From positions 32,001 to 96,000 of IMG/VR virus record IMGVR_UViG_3300014501_000001: a stretch of DNA of 64,000 nucleotides; one strand, 5' to 3'. The notes beneath the pieces are model-generated. The model made no database searches. It saw only the letters and a list, made by a program, of their open reading frames with translations, and was not told where the DNA came from. The DNA is from a virus. The translations under genes and the position numbers were made by a program. Below, piece after piece: positions 12,796 through 59,890 of the stretch; position 1 is the stretch's first letter, and every line of letters begins with the position of its first letter.

Positions 12796-15700
12796 TTGGC
12801 ATCTCCGGCCGCCATTATCGCCGCAGCGAAAGCCGCGCGCAGTGCGCCTTCCGCAGGCCAGGGCGGCATGTCACCCGCTGTTGCCGCCATGAACGATAGC
12901 TGGGGCGGCATTTACGGGAACTTCCTTCCCCGGCCTGCCCAGGACTTCACGCAGGGCGCGTTCGGGCCGCTGACACCCCTCCCGCCGATGCCGGTCGATC
13001 AGCCGCCGCCGGGCTTTGACCGCCCGATGCCGCGACGCTGGCAACCGCCAATAGGCTGGAATTTGCCGCAGAGCCCTCCGGGTAGCGAGGGGCTGAAGCT
13101 CTGCGGCTTCGGCGAGTTGCGCACCCTGAGCCGGCTCTACAGTGTCGCCCGCGCGTGCATCCAGCTCTTGAAGTCCGAGATCCGCGCCCTGGAATGGGAC
13201 ATCGTGCCCACGAAGGACGCGGCGAAGGCCATGCGCGGCGACCACAAGGCCATGCGGGACTTCGGCGAGCGCCGGTCCGAGTGCATCCGGTTCTTCAAGA
13301 ACCCGGACCCGGAGTACGGGTCGTGGTCCTCGTGGCTGGACACGCTGCTGGAGGAAATCTACGCGATAGATGCGCTTAGCGTATTTTTGCGCCCTTCGCG
13401 TGTCCGGGGACGCGGGCTAATGGGATCGGACCTGTCAGCGCTTGAGCTGATAACAGGTGATTCGATTCGCCCGATGGTGGATCTTCATGGTTCACGCCCT
13501 ACGCCCCCATCTGTCGCTTTTCAGCAATTTTTGTATGGGGTGCCCCGCAGCGACCTCATGACCATCATGATGGGCGCCGACCTGACCGACGACCTCAAGG
13601 CCACCCAGGTCCATGAGTACCGGGGGGATCAGCTTCTGTACCTGCCTTACACAAGGCAGACGGACAGCCCCTATGGCTTCCCGCCGGCGGAGCAGGCGCT
13701 AGTCCCGGTGATGTCGGGGCTGTCCAAGCAGGGTTACCAGCTTGACTTCTTTCGTGAGGGTTCGGTACCTGCTGTATATATTTCGCCTGGGGATGCCGCT
13801 ATGACCGCATCTCAGGTGCGGGAGCTTCAGGATGCATTGAACGTTATTGCCGGAGATGTCGGGTTTAAGCATAAGGTCATAGTGCTGCCCCCCGGCAGTA
13901 AGCCGTACCCGCAGAAGGACCCGCAGCTAGCCGACCAGTTCGACATGGTCGTGTCTACCGAGGTCTGCATGGCCTATCAGGTGCAACCCACCGAACTTGG
14001 GCTAATGCCGCAAGTAGCCACCGTGCAAAGTCCGTCAAGTATGAACCAGGCAGCCAAGGCGGACGCCGCGCGCCACCAGCGCAAGTCCCTCGTCCCGATG
14101 CTCCAGTTCCTCAAGCAGGGCCTGCTGGACAAGGTCATCCAGGTTGCCTGCGGGCAGACGGACATGCAGTTCCTGTTCGAGGGCCTGGAAGAGGACGAGG
14201 ACGAGGTCTCCCTGACGGGCCTGCTGGGAACGCAGATCGGCACCGGCCTGCGGTCGGTGGACGAGGGCAGGGGCGTCCTGGGCCTGGACCCGTGGGGCCT
14301 GCCGGTCACCCAGGACCCGCTGTGGGCATCCGCGAACGGCGTCATGCTGCTGGGGTCGGTGGACCCGGCGACGGGCCAGCCGGGCGGCCAGCTGGCGGGG
14401 CTGCCGTCCGTGACGCAGCAGATGCAGGGCGCGCAGGGCGGTGCCGCAGGCTCGCCGGGCGCGAACGAGGGCCAGGTGAACGGCAAGCCCGCGCTCGCGC
14501 AGGGCCACCTGCCGGGCACCACGCATGTCCCCCCGGCTCAGCCGCAGCGGGACCCGACACCCTCGCATTCGGCGGCGATAGCGGGAGCGGCGGAAGCAGC
14601 GGCAGCGGTCTCGGGCTCGTCCTCGAAAGCGGCAACGGCAGGGCAGGACGGGCTGCACCGCTACGAGCCGTTCGTCCCCGGCGACCAGTCCGCGTGCGTG
14701 AAGTGCAGCCTGCCGCGCAGCTATGCCGCCCACGCAGTGACGGCGATCGGGTCGCGGATGATGCTGAAGGCCATCGCGGCACCCGTTGCGCCAAGGCCGC
14801 CGGATCATGTCCTCGCGGAGATCCTGACCGCCCCGGACGCTGCGTCGCTGAGCAAGGCCGCAGCAGCCGCGCTGATGCCTGCCCTGCCGGAAACCCCGGC
14901 CGTGTCGTCCAAGGCCGCGCTGAGCGAGCTGGATGCGCTGGGCAGGCACGTCCGCAAGGGCCGCGACCCCGCAACCTGGCAGCCGGTCCACATCCCCGGT
15001 CACGTCATGGCCATGATCTGCGAGGACGTGACGAAGGGCATAGCCATTGCGGAAGTGCTGACGGCGGCGGCTGACCAGATCCCAAAAGCCTCAGCCGCCA
15101 AGAGCGGCCCTAGCAGCGGTCAGCGGCGGCAGGCGTGGCTTGCCTGGGAGCATGACCTCCAGCTGGCGGCGAAGTACGAGAAGCAGATCGGGGCCGCTTT
15201 CGCGTCGGTGATGGCCGAGGCGGGCAGGCTGTTCGCCGCGTTCCTCGCCGGGACCCTCGCGGTCACTGCGGCGGTTCTGGCGTCGATGATCGCGGACCTG
15301 ATCCGGCAGCGGCTCGCGCTGATCCTGGCTCCCTTGCACGCGGAGGGCCGGGAACTGGGCGCGGCGGCGGCCATGCAGGCAGTAGGGGCGTCCGCACGGC
15401 AGCGGCAGGGGATAGCGGCGGCGCAGCAGGCGGACACGTCCCAGATCGCCCAGCAGGCCGCGGTAAGGCAGATGGCCGGCACCGGGCTCGCCGGGTTCAC
15501 CGTCGCGCTCATGAAGCTGCTCCTCGGCGGCGCGGTCACCGTTGGGGCGCTGCTGGCGCTGCTGGATGCGTTCCTTAACGCTGAGAACCGCGCCGGGCTG
15601 ATCGCCCTGACGGAGATCGAGAAGGCCATCGCGGACGGGGCCTTCGGGGTCTACACCGAGCTAGGCGTGAGTTACGTCCGCTGGCACACCCGTAACGACT

Positions 15701-17337
15701 CAAGGGTCTGCGCCCGCTGCATGGCCAACCAGGACGCCGGCCCGGTTCCGCTGGGGAGCCTGTTCCCCGGCGGGGTCGCCCAGCCGTGCCAGCATCCAGG
15801 ATGTCGTTGCTGGCTGGCTCCGAGCGATCCGCCGAAGCAGGGTGTTGCGCCTCCCGCGCCGGGGACTGCGAAGGCGGCCGGGGCTCCGCTGCTCTACCAA
15901 GGACCCGTCCATGGGGGCCCATTGAGCTACCCGCCAACCATGGATGGCGAGGCGGGACTCGAACCCGCAACCTACGGAACCCCGGCCGCAGTGCACCTTA
16001 CCAAGGCCGACAAACCCTGGAAGCACCCGGACACGTCTCTCCCTGTCGCTGAGCAGGTCTACGCGCAACTGCTGGAGGACTACCCCGCCTCGGCGCTGAC
16101 CTGGGTAAAGGACGCTACCTGGACCGGCCCGCAAGAGGTCCCGCTCAGCGCGATCGAGTACACCCCGGACAAGTGGCAGGCCGGCCACGAGGACGCCAAG
16201 GTCGATCGCTTCAAGGCCAAGATCGAGCGCCGGCAGGCGGCAGGCAAGCCGGTCAAGCCGGCCGTCCTCATCGACCGGCCGGACACGAAGCCGGGAACGC
16301 ACCTGATCGTGATCGACGGCCACCACCGCACGATGGCCTTCCATGAACTGAATCGTCCCGTCGTCGCCTACGTCGGCAAGGTCACCACAGCAGGAGCGAG
16401 TGCGGCAGAGGAAACTCACGCCTCGCAGTTCAGCGACCGGAAGCCGGGCGCGGGCGACGACGGGCGCACCATGAAGAACTTCACGGCGGCGAACCTCGGC
16501 GACGGCTCGGTGCACGGCCTCGCGCCGTATGACCTGCGGGGCCAGGACGACGGCTGCGGCTGCTGCGCGGAGTGCAGCGGCCCGTCGTGCGGCTGCTGCC
16601 CGGACTGCGATGCGGCCAAGGCGGCACGCGGCTACAGCCTGAACCCGCGCTCGGGCATGATCTCCCTGGACCTGCCGGAAGGGCTGATCGAGCCCCTGCC
16701 AGGCGGGGTCACGGATCACCATGTGACCGTGGTTTACCTCGGGCCTGACGTGGATGACGACGCATTCAGCGCCGCGTGCGGCATGGCACGCGAGGTCGCG
16801 GCGGCCACGCAGCCGCTGTCCGGGACCATCGGCGGCATCGGCTCGTTCCCTGCCGGTGATGACGGGGTTCCGGTCTGGGCCGGCGTGAACCTGCCCGGTG
16901 CCGAGACACTGCACGAGGCGCTGGCTGAACTTCAGTCACCGGACGCGAAGGCCCGCGAGCACGGCTACAAGCCGCACTGCACCATCGCGTACCTCGAAGA
17001 GGGCGACCCGCTGCCGGATCCGCTGCCCCACATGCCGGTGACATTCACTCACCTGTCGGTACATCGCGGCGAGGACGTGAAGCGGTTCTCGTTCGGTGGC
17101 GGCTCAGCGGAGAAGTCAGGCAAGACCAGCGCCGAGATCCTCCGCGAGTACTGGACCCATGAAGGGCACCCCGGCCCCACGCAGTACGCCCTGGAAGAGA
17201 AGATCCGCTGGGGCGAGAAAGACGACTGGTACCGCTGCGTGGACGAGCTAACGCCCTACATCGGCGAGGGTGCGCGTGGCTATTGCACGCTCAGGCACCA
17301 CGAGGTCCTGGGTGCCTGGCCCGGACATCCGGTCTGA
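12796..17337 (+). CDS. Portal polyprotein: portal (about aa 1-520), MuF-like head morphogenesis domain, ParB-like domain, Cys-rich segment, 2H phosphoesterase, C-terminal IRWG domain
   Basis: Position after terminase; portal motifs FFKNPD, SPYGFPP, AYQVQPTELG; MuF RVCARC...HPGCRC; ParB IDGHHR; two HxT motifs (HVTV, HCTI). Confidence 0.85.
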   Translation: MASPAAIIAAAKAARSAPSAGQGGMSPAVAAMNDSWGGIYGNFLPRPAQDFTQGAFGPLTPLPPMPVDQPPPGFDRPMPRRWQPPIGWNLPQSPPGSEGLKLCGFGELRTLSRLYSVARACIQLLKSEIRALEWDIVPTKDAAKAMRGDHKAMRDFGERRSECIRFFKNPDPEYGSWSSWLDTLLEEIYAIDALSVFLRPSRVRGRGLMGSDLSALELITGDSIRPMVDLHGSRPTPPSVAFQQFLYGVPRSDLMTIMMGADLTDDLKATQVHEYRGDQLLYLPYTRQTDSPYGFPPAEQALVPVMSGLSKQGYQLDFFREGSVPAVYISPGDAAMTASQVRELQDALNVIAGDVGFKHKVIVLPPGSKPYPQKDPQLADQFDMVVSTEVCMAYQVQPTELGLMPQVATVQSPSSMNQAAKADAARHQRKSLVPMLQFLKQGLLDKVIQVACGQTDMQFLFEGLEEDEDEVSLTGLLGTQIGTGLRSVDEGRGVLGLDPWGLPVTQDPLWASANGVMLLGSVDPATGQPGGQLAGLPSVTQQMQGAQGGAAGSPGANEGQVNGKPALAQGHLPGTTHVPPAQPQRDPTPSHSAAIAGAAEAAAAVSGSSSKAATAGQDGLHRYEPFVPGDQSACVKCSLPRSYAAHAVTAIGSRMMLKAIAAPVAPRPPDHVLAEILTAPDAASLSKAAAAALMPALPETPAVSSKAALSELDALGRHVRKGRDPATWQPVHIPGHVMAMICEDVTKGIAIAEVLTAAADQIPKASAAKSGPSSGQRRQAWLAWEHDLQLAAKYEKQIGAAFASVMAEAGRLFAAFLAGTLAVTAAVLASMIADLIRQRLALILAPLHAEGRELGAAAAMQAVGASARQRQGIAAAQQADTSQIAQQAAVRQMAGTGLAGFTVALMKLLLGGAVTVGALLALLDAFLNAENRAGLIALTEIEKAIADGAFGVYTELGVSYVRWHTRNDSRVCARCMANQDAGPVPLGSLFPGGVAQPCQHPGCRCWLAPSDPPKQGVAPPAPGTAKAAGAPLLYQGPVHGGPLSYPPTMDGEAGLEPATYGTPAAVHLTKADKPWKHPDTSLPVAEQVYAQLLEDYPASALTWVKDATWTGPQEVPLSAIEYTPDKWQAGHEDAKVDRFKAKIERRQAAGKPVKPAVLIDRPDTKPGTHLIVIDGHHRTMAFHELNRPVVAYVGKVTTAGASAAEETHASQFSDRKPGAGDDGRTMKNFTAANLGDGSVHGLAPYDLRGQDDGCGCCAECSGPSCGCCPDCDAAKAARGYSLNPRSGMISLDLPEGLIEPLPGGVTDHHVTVVYLGPDVDDDAFSAACGMAREVAAATQPLSGTIGGIGSFPAGDDGVPVWAGVNLPGAETLHEALAELQSPDAKAREHGYKPHCTIAYLEEGDPLPDPLPHMPVTFTHLSVHRGEDVKRFSFGGGSAEKSGKTSAEILREYWTHEGHPGPTQYALEEKIRWGEKDDWYRCVDELTPYIGEGARGYCTLRHHEVLGAWPGHPV
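15874..15989 (-). ncRNA. Circularly permuted anticodon-less tRNA-like RNA (YrlA/Y-RNA-like topology)
   Basis: 16-bp terminal stem, AGGUU variable loop, T-arm GCGGG-UUCGAGU-CCCGC, 7-bp acceptor stem with UCCA, U8 A9 GCUC/GAGC D-stem with GG; extended -10 directly upstream. Confidence 0.75.
15995..16003 (-). promoter_or_regulatory. Extended -10 promoter (TGG-TAAGGT) for the tRNA-like RNA
   Basis: Matches TGnTAnnnT; 5 nt before the first base of the terminal stem. Confidence 0.55.
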
Positions 17338-31876: not shown

Positions 31877-32547
31877 TCCACCGGATGTGGCTCGGCCCCC
31901 GCCCCATGCCGGCGCCGTTCCGCGGCTTCGGCAAGAGGTGGCAGGAGCTTAACCCCGGCGCGAAGGTCATCGAGTGGAGCTGGCACAACCTGCCGGAAGA
32001 CCTCGCCAATGACGGCGTGCTGGAGGACATCCGGGGCCGCTGCACCAAAGGCGGCTCGATCGAGATGGCGGTCGCGCTCGCCGACGTGATCGCCTACGAC
32101 CTGGTGCGCAGGTTCGGCGGCACCTACGTGAACTGCGACATCCAGCCGCTGCGCCCCCTGTCCCTCCTCGGCGATGTCATTGCCACCCGGCCATGGGCGT
32201 CCTGGGAGAGCGATGAGGAATGGCGCGGGGTAGTCAACGCCGCGTTCGGCGGCCCGGCCGGCCACCCGTTCTGGGAGTCCGTGGTCACCGAGCTGCTGCC
32301 GCAGCGCTACTGGCGGATGAAGGCGGAGGGCAACGGCATCATCCCCGACGCGACCGGCAACGCGCTGATGGGCGAGGCGATGACAGCCCATCCCGGCGTC
32401 CTGCACGCCTTCCCCCGCGAGACGTTCAACCCGGTGCACTCCACCGAACTGGGGCTGCTGACGCCCTCGTGGATCCCCCCTCCCGGTGCCGTCGCGGTCC
32501 ATTACTGGGATCACAAGCGGACCGGGCGGACCAACTACATCACCTGA
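31870..32547 (+). CDS. GT32/DXD-like glycosyltransferase
   Basis: IHRMWLG, W.ELNPG, FGGTYVNCD (DxD variant), GHPFW. Confidence 0.75.
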   Translation: MLIHRMWLGPRPMPAPFRGFGKRWQELNPGAKVIEWSWHNLPEDLANDGVLEDIRGRCTKGGSIEMAVALADVIAYDLVRRFGGTYVNCDIQPLRPLSLLGDVIATRPWASWESDEEWRGVVNAAFGGPAGHPFWESVVTELLPQRYWRMKAEGNGIIPDATGNALMGEAMTAHPGVLHAFPRETFNPVHSTELGLLTPSWIPPPGAVAVHYWDHKRTGRTNYIT

Positions 32548-54911: not shown

Positions 54912-56318
54912 ATGGTCGAACGATGCGCGCTCTATGCCCGCCTCAGCTACGCCCCGGACGGCTCCGTCGAGGCCGTCACCCGGCAGGAGGAGTTCGCCCG
55001 GGGACTGGCCGCCCGGCTGGGGTGGGGAGTCGGCGCGGTTTTCGTGGACAACAGCCTCTCAGCCTGGAAGCGCGGTGTCATCCGGCCCGGCTGGGACCGG
55101 ATGCTGGCCGGCCTCCGATCCGGGGCATGCGACGGCCTGGTTTCCTACCACGGCGACCGGCTCATCCGCAGCGACCGGGGCCTGATCGACCTGTTCGACA
55201 TCGCCGAGGAACGCGGCCTGCCGATGGCATCGGTGTCCGGCACCCGCGACCTGTCCAGCCCCGATGACAGGTACATCCTGCGCATCGAGGTCGCCGGGTA
55301 CATCAGGGAATCCGACAGCATCTCCCGCCGCGTGAAGGCCGCCCTGGAGCGCAACGCCCGGCTCGGGAAGGCCCGGCCGGGCAGGTACCGGGCCTACGGC
55401 TACGACCGGGCCGGCATGGAGATCATCCCCGGCGAGGCGGCGGTCGTGCGGGAGATGGCCGCCCGGATGCTCGCCGGCGCCGCGCTCAACTCCGTGCCCC
55501 GCTGGCTCAACGCGGAGAGCGTGCCGACCGTGACCGGAGCCCCGTGGATCCGCGCCACCGTCCGCTCCGTGCTGACCTCCCCGCGCATCGCCGGGCTGCG
55601 GGCACTGCGGGGCGACATCATCGGCCCCGGGCAGTGGCCGGGGATCCTGGACCGGGAAACCTGGGAGGACGTCCAGCAGGTCGTGAAGTCCTGGCACTAC
55701 GGCAAGGGAAGGGGGTCCAGGGTGCCCCGCGCTCACCTGCTCACCGGCATCGCCGCGTGCGGCTCCTGCGGGCGCGGCCTGCGGTCCCTGCGCCGCAGCG
55801 GCCACCCGGACAGGCACATCTACTGGTGCGACAACCCCGCGTGCCCCGGCCCGAAGGTCGCGCGCTCGGAGGAGCACCTGGACGAGTACGTGACCACCGC
55901 GACGATCACCGTGCTGAACTCGCCGGAAGCCCGCGCCTCCCGGCAGCAGCGGCAGGGCAGCCCCGTGCTCGCCGCGGAGATCGCGGCCCTGGAGACCCGG
56001 ATGAGCGCCGAGCAGGCCGCGATGGACGAGATGCGCGACAGCGGCGACCCCGACTACGACCCGGTACTGGCGATGCGCCGCATCGGGTCGTGGAAACGGC
56101 GCATCGCCTCGCTGCGGGGGCAGATGGAGGCCACCTCCCGCCAGCGGCTCATCGACGCCACGGGAGAACTCACCCGGGGGCAGTGGGACGGGCTGACCCT
56201 GGAGCGGCGGCACGCCATCATCTCGGCGCTGTGGGAGGTGACCGTGCTGCCTGCCGCGAGGAAGGGGAGGCAGCCATTCGACCCGGAGTGCGTGCGGCTG
56301 GTGCTGCGGGAGGACTGA
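54912..56318 (+). CDS. int: Large serine recombinase (integrase)
   Basis: YARLS catalytic motif, DRLIR, recombinase domain, Zn ribbon CGSCG...Y.C, coiled coil. Confidence 0.92.
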   Translation: MVERCALYARLSYAPDGSVEAVTRQEEFARGLAARLGWGVGAVFVDNSLSAWKRGVIRPGWDRMLAGLRSGACDGLVSYHGDRLIRSDRGLIDLFDIAEERGLPMASVSGTRDLSSPDDRYILRIEVAGYIRESDSISRRVKAALERNARLGKARPGRYRAYGYDRAGMEIIPGEAAVVREMAARMLAGAALNSVPRWLNAESVPTVTGAPWIRATVRSVLTSPRIAGLRALRGDIIGPGQWPGILDRETWEDVQQVVKSWHYGKGRGSRVPRAHLLTGIAACGSCGRGLRSLRRSGHPDRHIYWCDNPACPGPKVARSEEHLDEYVTTATITVLNSPEARASRQQRQGSPVLAAEIAALETRMSAEQAAMDEMRDSGDPDYDPVLAMRRIGSWKRRIASLRGQMEATSRQRLIDATGELTRGQWDGLTLERRHAIISALWEVTVLPAARKGRQPFDPECVRLVLRED

Positions 56319-56415
56319 GCGGGCTGTCCGCAGACGACCAGAGTCAGCGAGAATAGTTCGGCTTTTGCGCGCGGCGCGCTGGGAAGGGCGTTGAGCCCCC
56401 TGTATAGTACGGCTT

Positions 56416-57075
56416 ATGAGCAATTCCCTGACGGGACATGGTTTCGGGCAGCAACCGGGCACTCATGCACCCAACTACGACCGGAAGTTCCCGGCCGAGC
56501 CGCTGAGCCCGGCCGAGGTCGGTGCCATCATCGGCGCATGCTCCCGGAAATCACCGACCGGGATCCGCAATCGCGCGCTGCTGACCCTGCTCTACCGCTC
56601 CGGGCTCCGCGTGTCCGAGATCCTTGCGCTGCGTCCGGCCGACGTGGACATGGCCCGTCGCAGCATCCGGCTGCTGGACACAAAGAGCGGTCACGCGCAG
56701 ACGCGCCACTTCCATGCCACGGCCGAGGACGCGCTGGCGCGCTGGATCGATACCCGCAAGGGACTCGGGATCAGGAGCGGCAAGTTGTTCTGCACGCTCA
56801 CCGGAACTCCCATGTCCGATGACTACGTGCGCGGCCTGCTTCGGCGACTCGCCGTGAGGGCGTCGATCGACAAGCGCGTGCACCCGCATGGCCTGCGCCA
56901 CACCTTCGCCGTGGAACTGGAGCAGGACGGCACTCCGGTCACCGTGATCAGCAAGCTACTCGGGCACTCCAGCGTGGCCGTCACGGCTCGCTACCTGGAT
57001 CACCTGACCAACGCACAGGCTGGATCGGCTTTGCAGTCGGCCCAGCTTCCATCCTTGGAGGATTCCGATGACTGA
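56416..57075 (+). CDS. Tyrosine recombinase, catalytic domain only
   Basis: GLRVSE, K, HPHGLRH, LLGH, T.RY; TATAGT -10 box, leaderless. Confidence 0.9.
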   Translation: MSNSLTGHGFGQQPGTHAPNYDRKFPAEPLSPAEVGAIIGACSRKSPTGIRNRALLTLLYRSGLRVSEILALRPADVDMARRSIRLLDTKSGHAQTRHFHATAEDALARWIDTRKGLGIRSGKLFCTLTGTPMSDDYVRGLLRRLAVRASIDKRVHPHGLRHTFAVELEQDGTPVTVISKLLGHSSVAVTARYLDHLTNAQAGSALQSAQLPSLEDSDD

Positions 57076-57826: not shown

Positions 57827-58510
57827 CTAGCGGTAGAACTCCCGGCGCACGCTCAGCAGCCACGCCTCTGCTGCCGCGATGTCAGGCTCACCGGGCAAGA
57901 CGCCCGGCTGGTCGAATACCCGCTCAGCGGCGGCGATCATCCTCTCGCCGATGGATGGATCCTCGGCGACGTGCTCGCCGAACTCCCGGCACTCCCGCAC
58001 CTGACCGGCCGTCAGCCTGATCGCCAGCTCGCCCGTGGAGTGCAGCGCCGTGCCTTGCTGGCACAGCCTCATCAGGTGGCGTCCGTGTTTTTGCGTGCGC
58101 TTACGGGTGTCGGCCGAGAATGACCCGTCGCCGCGGTCCCTGAGCTTGCGGAGCTGGCTGACGGAGTACCCGAGGTAGGCGTTCCTGACCGTCCGGGTGC
58201 TGAGCAGCCTGCGCCGGATGGCGATCAGTTCGTCACCGAGGACGGAGCATGTGTCGTATTCCGGCAGCCACAGTAGCTCGGTGATCGTCGGGTTGGCCTT
58301 GAGCGCAAGCGAGAGGTACTTGCGCGCCTCGTGCCAGGTGATGTCCGAGGGCTCCTTGTAGACGTAGCTCTCCTTCGGCGACGACAGCCCGAGCAGGTCA
58401 ATGGTCGGCCGGGCAAACATGCCGATGCGGTCCACATCGGAACCGGAGTGATCAAGCCCGTAGGCAGTGGATCCGACCACGCCGGCAAGCAGCACGGTTC
58501 CGGGGATCAT
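57827..58510 (-). CDS. Pol-beta-superfamily nucleotidyltransferase (YcgL/RlaP-like)
   Basis: GSTAYGL....SDVD, KANPT..ELLW, KH..HL.RL. Confidence 0.85.
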   Translation of the reverse strand: MIPGTVLLAGVVGSTAYGLDHSGSDVDRIGMFARPTIDLLGLSSPKESYVYKEPSDITWHEARKYLSLALKANPTITELLWLPEYDTCSVLGDELIAIRRRLLSTRTVRNAYLGYSVSQLRKLRDRGDGSFSADTRKRTQKHGRHLMRLCQQGTALHSTGELAIRLTAGQVRECREFGEHVAEDPSIGERMIAAAERVFDQPGVLPGEPDIAAAEAWLLSVRREFYR

Positions 58511-59890
58511 GCCGCCTCCCGGTCCGCCAGCCAGCGGAGCGCCCCGGCCTCGTCCTCGAACTCCCCGGCGTCCTGCGCGGCCAGGGCCTCGGCGAGAAGC
58601 GGCCGGAACGCCGGGCCTGGCACCATCCCGGCGGCGATCAGGTGGTCACCCGTCAGCAGTCCCTTCGCGGGCCGTTCCTGCACGCTCAGCCCGCGTCCCA
58701 TCTCCAGCCATGCGGCGGCAGGGTTGGGCGCATCAGGGTCGCCGCGCCCGGCCTGGTCGGCGCCGCAGACGAGCGTCATCTCGGCCAGCGTTGCCGGGGC
58801 GAGCCTGCGGGCCAGCCTGCGCACCGCGGGCTTCGTCGGCCGCCCGGCGATGCACATGTGCTCGCGCACCAGCGGCAGGATGCGCGCGGTGGTTCCCTCC
58901 GGGCAGCCGATGGAGCGCAGGAAGTCCCGTGCCGGCTCCACGCCTGCGGCGGCGTGGCCGTGCGAGGTGATCCGGCCGCCGTGCGGCCACTGCGTGTGGG
59001 TCACCTTCCCGAAGTCATGCGCCAGCGCGGCCATGACGACCACGAAGCGGTCAGTGCCAGTCAGCCCGGCCTCATCAGCGAGCCTCGCGGCCTGGTCCGC
59101 AGCGAACCCGGAGTGAACATGGACATTACCCTCCGGGTGCCAGCCGGGGTCCTGCGGCACGGCGTGCAGGGCGGCGATCTGCGGGAAGTGGCGTTCCCAT
59201 CCGGAGGCTTCCAGCGTGTCAAGGGCGACGGAGATGCGCGTCCCCCTGGTGCCGATCTTCTCCATCTCGCACCAGACGCGCTCCACCGGCAGTTCGCTGT
59301 AGGCGTCTGCGAGCCGGCGGCAGAGGATGATGGTTCCCAGCGCCAGCCGGAACCCGAACCTGGCAGCGAACTGGACGGCTCGCAGGACCCGCAGCGGGTC
59401 CTCGCTGAACGCCTCCGTGGTGTGGCGCAGGACGCCGGTCTTCAGGTCGGCCATGCCGCCCCAGTGGTCGGTGATCTCGCCCGTTGCCGGGTCGGCCATC
59501 ATCGAGTTGACGGTGAAGTCACGCCGGCCGCTGGCCTCCCGGAAGCCGAGGGAGCCGTCCGGGATTACGTCAAAGCCGCGATGGCCTGCGCCGGTCTTGG
59601 ACTCGCGGCGCGGCAGGGAGATGTCCAGGTCCGTATCCCCGGCGCGGACCTTGAGCACGCCGAACGCCTTGCCTGCCTCGGTGACCTTCCCGGCATCAGC
59701 CAGTGCCGCAGCCAGGACGTCCGGATCGGCTACCCCGGTAGACCTCGACGTCTATGTCCTTGCTGACAGCGCCGGGGTTCATGATGGCGTCGCGGACGTA
59801 GCCGCCAACCAGCATTGGCCGGCCGCCAGCCCTGCGGATGACGGCGAGCGCGCGCTCCGCATCCGGTCCCGGCCGACTGGCTAGCTGCAT
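58507..59890 (-). CDS. cca: CCA-adding enzyme/poly(A) polymerase family with HD domain; +1 frameshift at about 59737
   Basis: LVGGYVRD, DIDVE, RRDFTVN, EDPLRVLRAVQFAARF, WHPEG, LAHDFGK. Confidence 0.85.

Follow-up and report, generated by a model that had tools for sequence, protein, structure and literature searches.

The locus analysed here lies in a 64,000-nt stretch of viral DNA (hereafter, the window; positions 32,001 to 96,000 of the IMG/VR record IMGVR_UViG_3300014501_000001), and coordinates refer to the window unless stated otherwise. According to its record, the source genome is 113,096 bp long, has direct terminal repeats and is estimated to be 100% complete. On the plus strand, an open reading frame (ORF) at 12796–17337 encodes a portal polyprotein of 1513 amino acids (aa), in which domain searches placed a portal domain (aa 117–496), a MuF domain (aa 931–1007) and a 2H phosphoesterase (aa 1309–1413). 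The polyprotein also contains a weakly ParB-like segment with a DGHHR motif and a Cys-rich stretch. Between the MuF domain and the ParB-like segment, a linker (aa about 1024–1068) in a Pro/Gly/Ala-rich stretch holds a structured element that is antisense to the ORF. An initial annotation, made from the sequence alone, had described this element as a circularly permuted tRNA mimic across which the portal frame stays open, and the plus-strand frame was indeed found to be uninterrupted from 12796 to 17337.

The core fold of the element comprises 116 nt of the minus strand (15989–15874), in which a 16-bp stalk closes a permuted tRNA-like domain composed of a variable loop, T arm, closed acceptor stem and D arm. 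Read 5′ to 3′, the 16-nt 5′ arm of the stalk (15989–15974) is followed by a 5-nt variable loop (AGGUU, 15973–15969) and by the T arm (GCGGG-UUCGAGU-CCCGC, 15968–15952), which was recovered in the sequence, the fold and the Rfam match described below and whose loop corresponds to the tRNA consensus. The acceptor stem, 7 bp closed by a loop (15951–15930), is formed by the 3′ strand CUCGCCA (15951–15945), the acceptor loop UCCAUGGU (15944–15937) and the 5′ strand UGGCGGG (15936–15930). A UA linker (15929–15928) leads to the D arm (15927–15891), which is arranged as GCUC, AAU, a 6-bp hairpin, UUGGUA and GAGC. GCUC (15927–15924) and GAGC (15894–15891) pair as the D stem, and the hairpin (20 nt, 15920–15901, with its loop CCAUGGAC at 15914–15907) sits in the variable stretch of the D loop, before the conserved GG. 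After a single A, the 16-nt 3′ arm of the stalk (15889–15874) completes the structure.

Every feature was located at the minus-strand coordinates originally assigned to it, and the minimum-free-energy (MFE) structure computed with RNAfold reproduced every described helix (−72.3 kcal/mol; z = −3.4 versus shuffles). The plus strand gave a weaker and different fold (−61.4 kcal/mol; z = −3.2). All 38 of the 38 pairs modelled in the core fold are standard pairs, including the four G-U pairs that exist on the minus strand only, and a covariance model built from the fold gave the minus strand 146.5 bits and the plus strand 34.5 bits. The four minus-strand-only G-U pairs had already been noted in the initial annotation. 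In the MFE structure of 142 nt, an outer helix (ACUGCG/CGCAGU) was added; on this model, the RNA could extend from 15992 to 15862. ARAGORN detected no tRNA or tmRNA in the window or the whole genome, and the Rfam tRNA model (RF00005) gave the element 16.2 bits, below its cut-off of 29.

The element was matched over the whole length of the Rfam YrlA model (RF02553; 15992–15862, minus strand, an interval that includes the possible outer helix; model positions 1–114 of 114; 48.2 bits; E = 8.3e-10). This match confirmed both the kinship to YrlA and the reading in which the 3′ half of a tRNA precedes the 5′ half. It was seen only with E-value reporting, as the Rfam gathering cut-off for YrlA is 69 bits; at the gathering threshold, Rfam reported nothing across the window. 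For calibration, four permuted tRNA-like elements from viral contigs were scored with Rfam. Two of them, L015 and L021, gave whole-model YrlA matches of 50.7 and 50.2 bits, and both records are complete viruses that encode a TROVE (Ro60) protein. The YrlA cut-off therefore also excludes accepted phage members, for which 69 bits is too strict, and the element, at 48.2 bits, scores as these accepted phage YrlAs do.

When the sequence was read against the published descriptions (PMC4201824; 10.1101/312249), the positions of the YrlA/tRNA tertiary contacts were present in the element, namely the UUCGA T loop, the D-loop GG, the UA linker and the final pyrimidine of the variable loop. Judged from its position, the U that ends the variable loop can enter a Levitt-type pair, A15:U48, of the kind described for YrlA (PMC4201824). 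YrlAs were likened to circularly permuted tRNAs in a structure paper (Wang et al., 2018, 10.1101/312249), and at least about three dozen distinct permuted tRNA mimics were found among the first 120 pattern matches listed from viral contigs. The permuted topology itself is thus already known. Taken together, the element is very probably a genuine YrlA-class permuted tRNA-mimic module, and what sets it apart is its orphan, handle-less, CCA-bearing and ORF-embedded form, not its topology. A recurring viral mimic (L017:827-897, L056:5367-5437, L088:2432-2502 and L107) has the same AGGUU variable loop, an 8-bp acceptor stem and a CAU triloop; it is the closest design to the element, yet its stalk is short (GGGAGA with UCUCCC).

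The acceptor end of the element deserves attention. A discriminator U and CCA directly follow the 7-bp acceptor stem in exact tRNA register (positions 66–72, 73 and 74–76), and the element alone shows N-CCA directly after a 7-bp acceptor stem among about 40 closed-acceptor viral permuted mimics listed. The YrlA of Mycobacterium smegmatis is the only studied YrlA with a 7-bp acceptor stem, and in vivo RNase P cleaves this RNA and CCA is added to it (PMC4201824). By analogy with this RNA, an RNase P site is predicted between 15937 and 15936.

The loop that closes the acceptor stem may take part in a further contact. The acceptor loop UCCAUGGU and the loop of the D-loop hairpin CCAUGGAC are complementary over 7 nt, including the CCA, as first pointed out in the initial annotation, and the computed duplex energy of −10.8 kcal/mol was reached by random 8-nt loops of equal composition in 6 of 10,000 trials. 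Both loops also contain the palindrome CCAUGG, and the predicted homodimer is 14.8 kcal/mol more stable than two monomers. CCATGG occurs 29 times in the genome versus 39 expected, and other close pairs are present. The complementarity may reflect a kissing contact within one molecule or a contact between the two molecules of a dimer, or it may simply come with the two CCATGG palindromes. Hairpins inserted in the D loop recur in bacterial YrlA-like RNAs (L153, L146/L150 and L144/L138), so the insertion by itself is not new. Separately, a D-loop hairpin of about 25 nt (GTAGCTCAGG...CATGGTAGAGC) is conserved across three viral contigs (L124:6560-6636, L125:11949-12025 and L126:13598-13675), where the tRNA bearing it is the second in phage tRNA arrays, downstream of a tRNA with a long extra arm. 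These loci were rejected as analogues of the element, being tRNA arrays whose second tRNA has a D-loop insertion.

Neither a Ro60 gene nor a Ro60-binding handle was found. The TROVE domain (PF05731) had no match in the six frames of the complete 113-kb genome, in a search in which the positive controls were detected, and none in the six frames of the 115-kb genome of a sister phage (described below). The large unannotated ORFs likewise gave no Ro60 signal in Pfam, PHROGs, a PDB sequence search and one ESM Atlas look-up; despite the negative TROVE search, the genome may encode a very divergent Ro60-like fold. In the literature, YrlAs and Y-like RNAs of phages carry a bulged 5′/3′ helix with GNCGAAN0-1G or CGAA (PMC4201824; PMC12135203). 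In the element, the stalk is 16 uninterrupted, bulge-free base pairs; CGAA is absent from the minus strand of 15855–16003, and neither GNCGAAN0-1G nor a GGUUACUUC-like motif, the latter a 5′ motif common to most viral permuted copies examined, is present in the stalk. The two absences observed at the outset, that of an Rsr gene and that of a bulged helix for Ro binding, thus stood up to the searches, and the Ro60 gene and its handle are both missing from this phage and element. YrlA-like RNAs with D-loop hairpins were also seen in an actinobacterial metagenome-assembled genome (MAG; L153:6599-6664), a Planctomycetota MAG (L146:5736-5857) and Mycolicibacterium palauense (L143:2089-2154). TROVE was not matched in these three genomes, whose completeness is not established, and they may hold further orphan YrlA-like copies.

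Comparison of the polyprotein with its homologues, all of which keep the fused domain architecture, indicated how the element came to lie in the linker. The homologue of the sister phage (P0003) contains an identical element, and the insertion is absent or different in six others. In three of these (P0004, L002 and L003), another linker, about 34 residues long and with no tRNA-like fold, takes its place, and three (P0005, L127 and L128) have no insert in the linker. The lineage-specific insertion comprises about 45 codons (approximately 15865–15999), is in frame and contains no stop. As the length gap to the insert-free homologues is about that of the folded RNA, we conclude that about 130 nt were gained in this lineage, within a linker that the protein can do without. 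We place good confidence in this conclusion and in a recent exchange of the segment between phages. The codon usage of the insert is somewhat atypical, with a GC content at third codon positions of 0.69, versus 0.83 for the gene. Two of the three plus-strand frames across the element are free of stops, so an open frame through the insert is not surprising.

The different linker of L002 and L003 showed no significant nucleotide similarity to the insert (p = 0.27 for the interior and 0.09 overall), and its fold was no better than that of shuffles (z = +1.5). At the place of the element, the minus strand of L002:2170-2310 (likewise L003) has a possible 10-bp stem with a 2-nt bulge; these homologues are 58% identical. 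On its sequence, this linker may be a decayed copy or a different RNA. The polyprotein homologues also differ by whole blocks elsewhere, with an 88-residue block missing in P0004 and P0005 and an extra Cys-rich block in P0003. A DNA search of the phage collection gave no match to the genome, and protein matches were distant (portal, 25–29% identity); a segment of the MuF region had a short match, 39% identical, to an unannotated protein.

The sister phage, IMGVR_UViG_3300037117_000082, aligns with the source genome over 37.8 kb at a mean identity of 85.6%. Within this alignment, a block of 795 bp (15451–16245) that includes the element is 100% identical, five times longer than the next-longest identical run of 160 bp, which indicates that the exchange was recent. 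The chance that one tract of 795 bp covers the element is about 2% ((795+131)/37,800). By this comparison, the segment bearing the element is the most recently shared DNA of the two phages, and the pattern fits a spreading cassette, whether by selection or by selfish conversion.

Further copies were sought by a protein search of viral contigs, searches of metagenome contigs, peptide-focused protein searches, DNA patterns and covariance searches of the fetched loci and of 151 actinobacterial genomes, and the only further copy found was the identical one in the single sister phage. Since that copy is identical and lies in a recombination block, it carries no covariation information. The loci L170 and L184–L188 were rejected as analogues, being tRNA-array or tandem-tRNA junctions. 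At L170:12186-12262, the 3′ part of a tRNA is joined to the 5′ part of a tRNA between two tRNA-Ala genes of a phage array, and this fragment resembles the permuted topology in a raw state, as a tandem junction.

A candidate promoter for the element was evaluated at its 5′ side. The extended −10-like box TGG-TAAGGT (15995–16003, minus strand) lies 5 nt upstream of the stalk and overlaps H-L-T-K codons, of which T-K are conserved. Its sequence, TGn-TANNNT in general form, is created in part by the insertion junction; the equivalent place reads TGGTGACGG in an insert-free homologue and TGGTAATCT in the homologues with the other linker (L002 and L003). The claim of an extended −10 holds as far as the letters are concerned, and the box is not detected by sigma-70 criteria.

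Elsewhere in the genome, genes for RNA-end repair were identified. A minus-strand gene at 58510–59751 encodes a CCA-adding/repair-type enzyme with a class II nucleotidyltransferase (PolyA_pol) head and an HD domain (157 bits to a model of multifunctional CCA addition/repair). The adjoining gene (57827–58510, minus strand) encodes an RlaP nucleotidyltransferase (PF10127), a family that extends damaged RNA 3′ ends and is tied to tRNA repair (10.64898/2025.12.29.696909; PMC7824862). No tRNA gene was detected in the complete genome by ARAGORN, and no RtcB gene was found in the genome. As the pair is present and tRNA genes are absent, it looks like a host-tRNA repair cassette. Together with the 2H phosphoesterase of the polyprotein, these genes would equip the phage for RNA-end repair, and a mimic of a tRNA end would be plausible company for them. 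A large serine recombinase is encoded at 54912–56318, among the recombinase genes at 54912–57075; two tyrosine recombinases and a serine recombinase (window 54912–57075; genome 30137–30643) are thus found in one phage with direct terminal repeats.

We tentatively favour the explanation that the element gives rise to a transcript which RNase P cleaves and which then mimics the acceptor end or the elbow of a tRNA independently of Ro60. In its favour stand the full-length YrlA match, the intact and strand-specific fold, the conserved tertiary positions, the insertion that six homologues lack or replace, the 795-bp identical block, and a genome with RlaP and CCA-adding/HD enzymes but no TROVE, RtcB or tRNA gene. 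In addition, the stalk exceeds the equivalent of a 5-bp anticodon stem by 11 bp, which random capture of tRNA DNA would not produce. The element would descend from a YrlA-class permuted mimic that lost, or never had, the Ro60/Rsr-binding handle. About 130 nt would have been inserted, antisense and in frame, into the dispensable Pro/Gly/Ala-rich linker of the portal–MuF–ParB-like–2H gene, and the element would have moved recently between related phages by homologous recombination. Minus-strand transcription could start at the TGG-TAAGGT box, to which the insertion junction contributes, and the transcript of about 116–131 nt would fold into a tRNA L-shape on its 16-bp stalk. Because U-CCA stands in exact tRNA register behind the 7-bp acceptor stem, cleavage by host RNase P is proposed between 15937 and 15936, as in M. 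smegmatis YrlA, and trimming would then yield a two-piece tRNA with a free CCA end and no anticodon. Such an RNA might engage readers of the tRNA elbow or acceptor end with no need for Ro60. The candidates include host factors that modify tRNA ends or cleave tRNAs as well as the RlaP and CCA-adding/HD enzymes of the phage, and in a conflict over tRNA ends the RNA could play the part of a decoy, a sponge or a cofactor.

Several observations weigh against this explanation. Diverged copies of the element were sought without success in viral contigs, metagenome contigs, 5.8 billion proteins, 151 actinobacterial genomes and, by a strict pattern, one genome per species. The only second copy, being identical and within a recombination block, shows neither covariation nor a trace of purifying selection acting on the RNA. 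A standard scan at the element detected neither a sigma-70-type promoter nor an intrinsic terminator, and the −10-like box overlaps constrained codons. The sister phage has the element and lacks the CCA-adding enzyme, so the link to this enzyme is suggestive only and not obligatory. Moreover, the lack of an anticodon loop excludes a decoy role against anticodon nucleases. The most elaborate version of the proposal, in which a Ro60-independent mimic lying antisense in a structural gene is converted by RNase P into a two-piece, CCA-ended tRNA that the D-loop hairpin can mask, acts as a decoy or cofactor with RlaP and CCA-adding/HD in a conflict over tRNA 3′ ends and spreads as a recombining cassette, is judged unlikely.

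The strongest alternative is that the element is passenger DNA: illegitimate recombination would have brought an entire YrlA-like RNA gene of a host or of a different phage into a linker that tolerates insertions, adding 45 harmless residues and no functional RNA here, and the perfect structure would reflect only the recency of the event. The linker is dispensable and variable in length among the homologues, an open in-frame insertion is not improbable when two of three frames are stop-free, and the 795-bp identical block makes the segment very young in at least one of the two genomes. The lack of a detected promoter or terminator and of diverged copies that could show selection is also what a passenger would leave. 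However, the inserted unit corresponds almost exactly to the folded RNA, stalk to stalk, and its junction helps to create the TGn-TANNNT box. In addition, the sole long identical tract between the two genomes, which are 86% identical over aligned DNA, covers the element (about 2% by chance), and the rest of the genome is invested in tRNA-end repair. We therefore consider a mere passenger possible but rather doubtful, and retain the Ro60-independent mimic as the preferred explanation.

A second alternative is an ordinary Y RNA that uses a host Ro60/Rsr, or a phage protein too divergent for the TROVE model, and would link that protein to PNPase in the manner of RYPER complexes. Rsr genes are known from some actinobacteria (PMC4201824), and the YrlA score of the element equals those of TROVE-linked phage YrlAs. 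Against this, six-frame TROVE searches were negative in both complete genomes that bear the element, the large unannotated ORFs gave no Ro60 signal in Pfam, PHROGs, the PDB sequence search or the ESM Atlas, and the perfect 16-bp stalk has no bulge and no GNCGAAN0-1G, CGAA or GGUUACUUC-like motif. An ordinary Y RNA is accordingly improbable.

We assign an equally low likelihood to a role in cis or in antisense on the portal gene, which could take the form of pairing with its mRNA, of a mirror-image mRNA structure that pauses ribosomes between the MuF and cargo domains, or of a packaging RNA that oligomerises like phi29 pRNA through the CCAUGG loops. Any minus-strand transcript would match the mRNA in complementarity over its whole length, a stable fold is predicted for the plus strand too (−61.4 kcal/mol, z = −3.2), the position of the element coincides with a domain boundary, and its loops are palindromic and mutually complementary, with the predicted homodimer gaining 14.8 kcal/mol over two monomers. 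However, homologues with the same domain order lack the element, the tRNA loop sequences and the four G-U pairs are meaningful on the minus strand only, Rfam gave no pRNA match, and CCATGG, with 29 copies versus 39 expected and other close pairs, is not unusual in the genome.

The weakest alternative, a DNA-level element, that is, a tRNA-derived recombination or attachment site for a phage recombinase or a hairpin hotspot of gene conversion, could draw on the two tyrosine recombinases and one serine recombinase of the genome, on the position of the element inside a fresh conversion tract and on the fact that tRNA genes are common attachment sites, but it is highly improbable, as the recombinase genes lie 17–40 kb away, attachment sites carry a contiguous tRNA 3′ segment and not a permuted tRNA on a 16-bp stalk, and no matching bacterial sequence was found in the species-genome pattern search or in the 151 actinobacterial genomes.

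If the element acts as a Ro60-independent mimic, its significance would lie in what it separates. YrlA-type RNAs are understood as Ro60 partners, and the binding partner of their tRNA-like half is an open question (10.1101/312249). A handle-less copy in a Ro60-free genome would isolate the function of the tRNA mimic and make it testable alone, all the more so with a CCA-bearing acceptor stem predicted to be RNase P-competent in a phage that has tRNA-end repair enzymes and no tRNAs. It would, besides, clearly exemplify how a gene for a structured RNA can lie antisense within a protein-coding linker, one that was missed by both gene callers and Rfam-threshold RNA scans. Even if it is only a passenger, it shows how phage polyproteins can absorb tRNA-derived DNA.

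The element was compared with four known systems. With phi29 pRNA it shares only the idea of loop-to-loop oligomerisation and a location in a head-assembly gene region; pRNA is not tRNA-like, and the Rfam pRNA model gave no match at the gathering threshold across the window or at E up to 10 in 15700–16200. In the permuted tRNA genes of Cyanidioschyzon merolae and some other algae, the 3′ half is also encoded first, and the transcripts are circularised to give decoding tRNAs with an anticodon loop. The element shares the 3′-before-5′ order with these genes; in contrast, it has no anticodon loop, and a splicing-type junction is not evident in it, although no test for one was made.

A closer likeness is found in the junctions of tandem (dimeric) tRNA genes, which have been proposed as the ancestor of YrlA (Sim and Wolin, 2018, as quoted in 10.1101/312249). 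These junctions likewise join the 3′ part of a tRNA with CCA, through a 4-nt spacer, to the 5′ part of the same tRNA, and in the element the two acceptor strands fit each other, as do the two sides of the inner 5 bp of the stalk (GCGGA with UCCGU), in the way expected of a single tRNA source. The covariance model of the element also picked up true tandem-tRNA junctions in actinobacteria, at 40–53 bits. Unlike such junctions, the element is not flanked by a complete tRNA, and its flanks pair with each other over 16 bp instead of forming their own anticodon hairpins.

The nearest relative is YrlA of bacteria and mycobacteriophages (RF02553; Chen et al., 2014, PMC4201824; 10.1101/312249), with which the element shares the order of parts (T arm, acceptor stem-loop, UA linker and D arm, with the ends closing the would-be anticodon stem), the sequences conserved in the T and D arms and the positions of the tertiary contacts; the 7-bp acceptor stem is that of M. 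smegmatis YrlA. It differs from YrlA in having no TROVE gene in its genome and no bulged helix or CGAA-type motif, in its position antisense inside a coding sequence and in its score of 48.2 bits versus the cut-off of 69, and from most viral copies in having a plain 5-nt variable loop in place of a hairpin. Moreover, in contrast to YrlA, the element encodes U-CCA in its acceptor loop, and the loop of its D-loop hairpin is predicted to pair with that acceptor loop.

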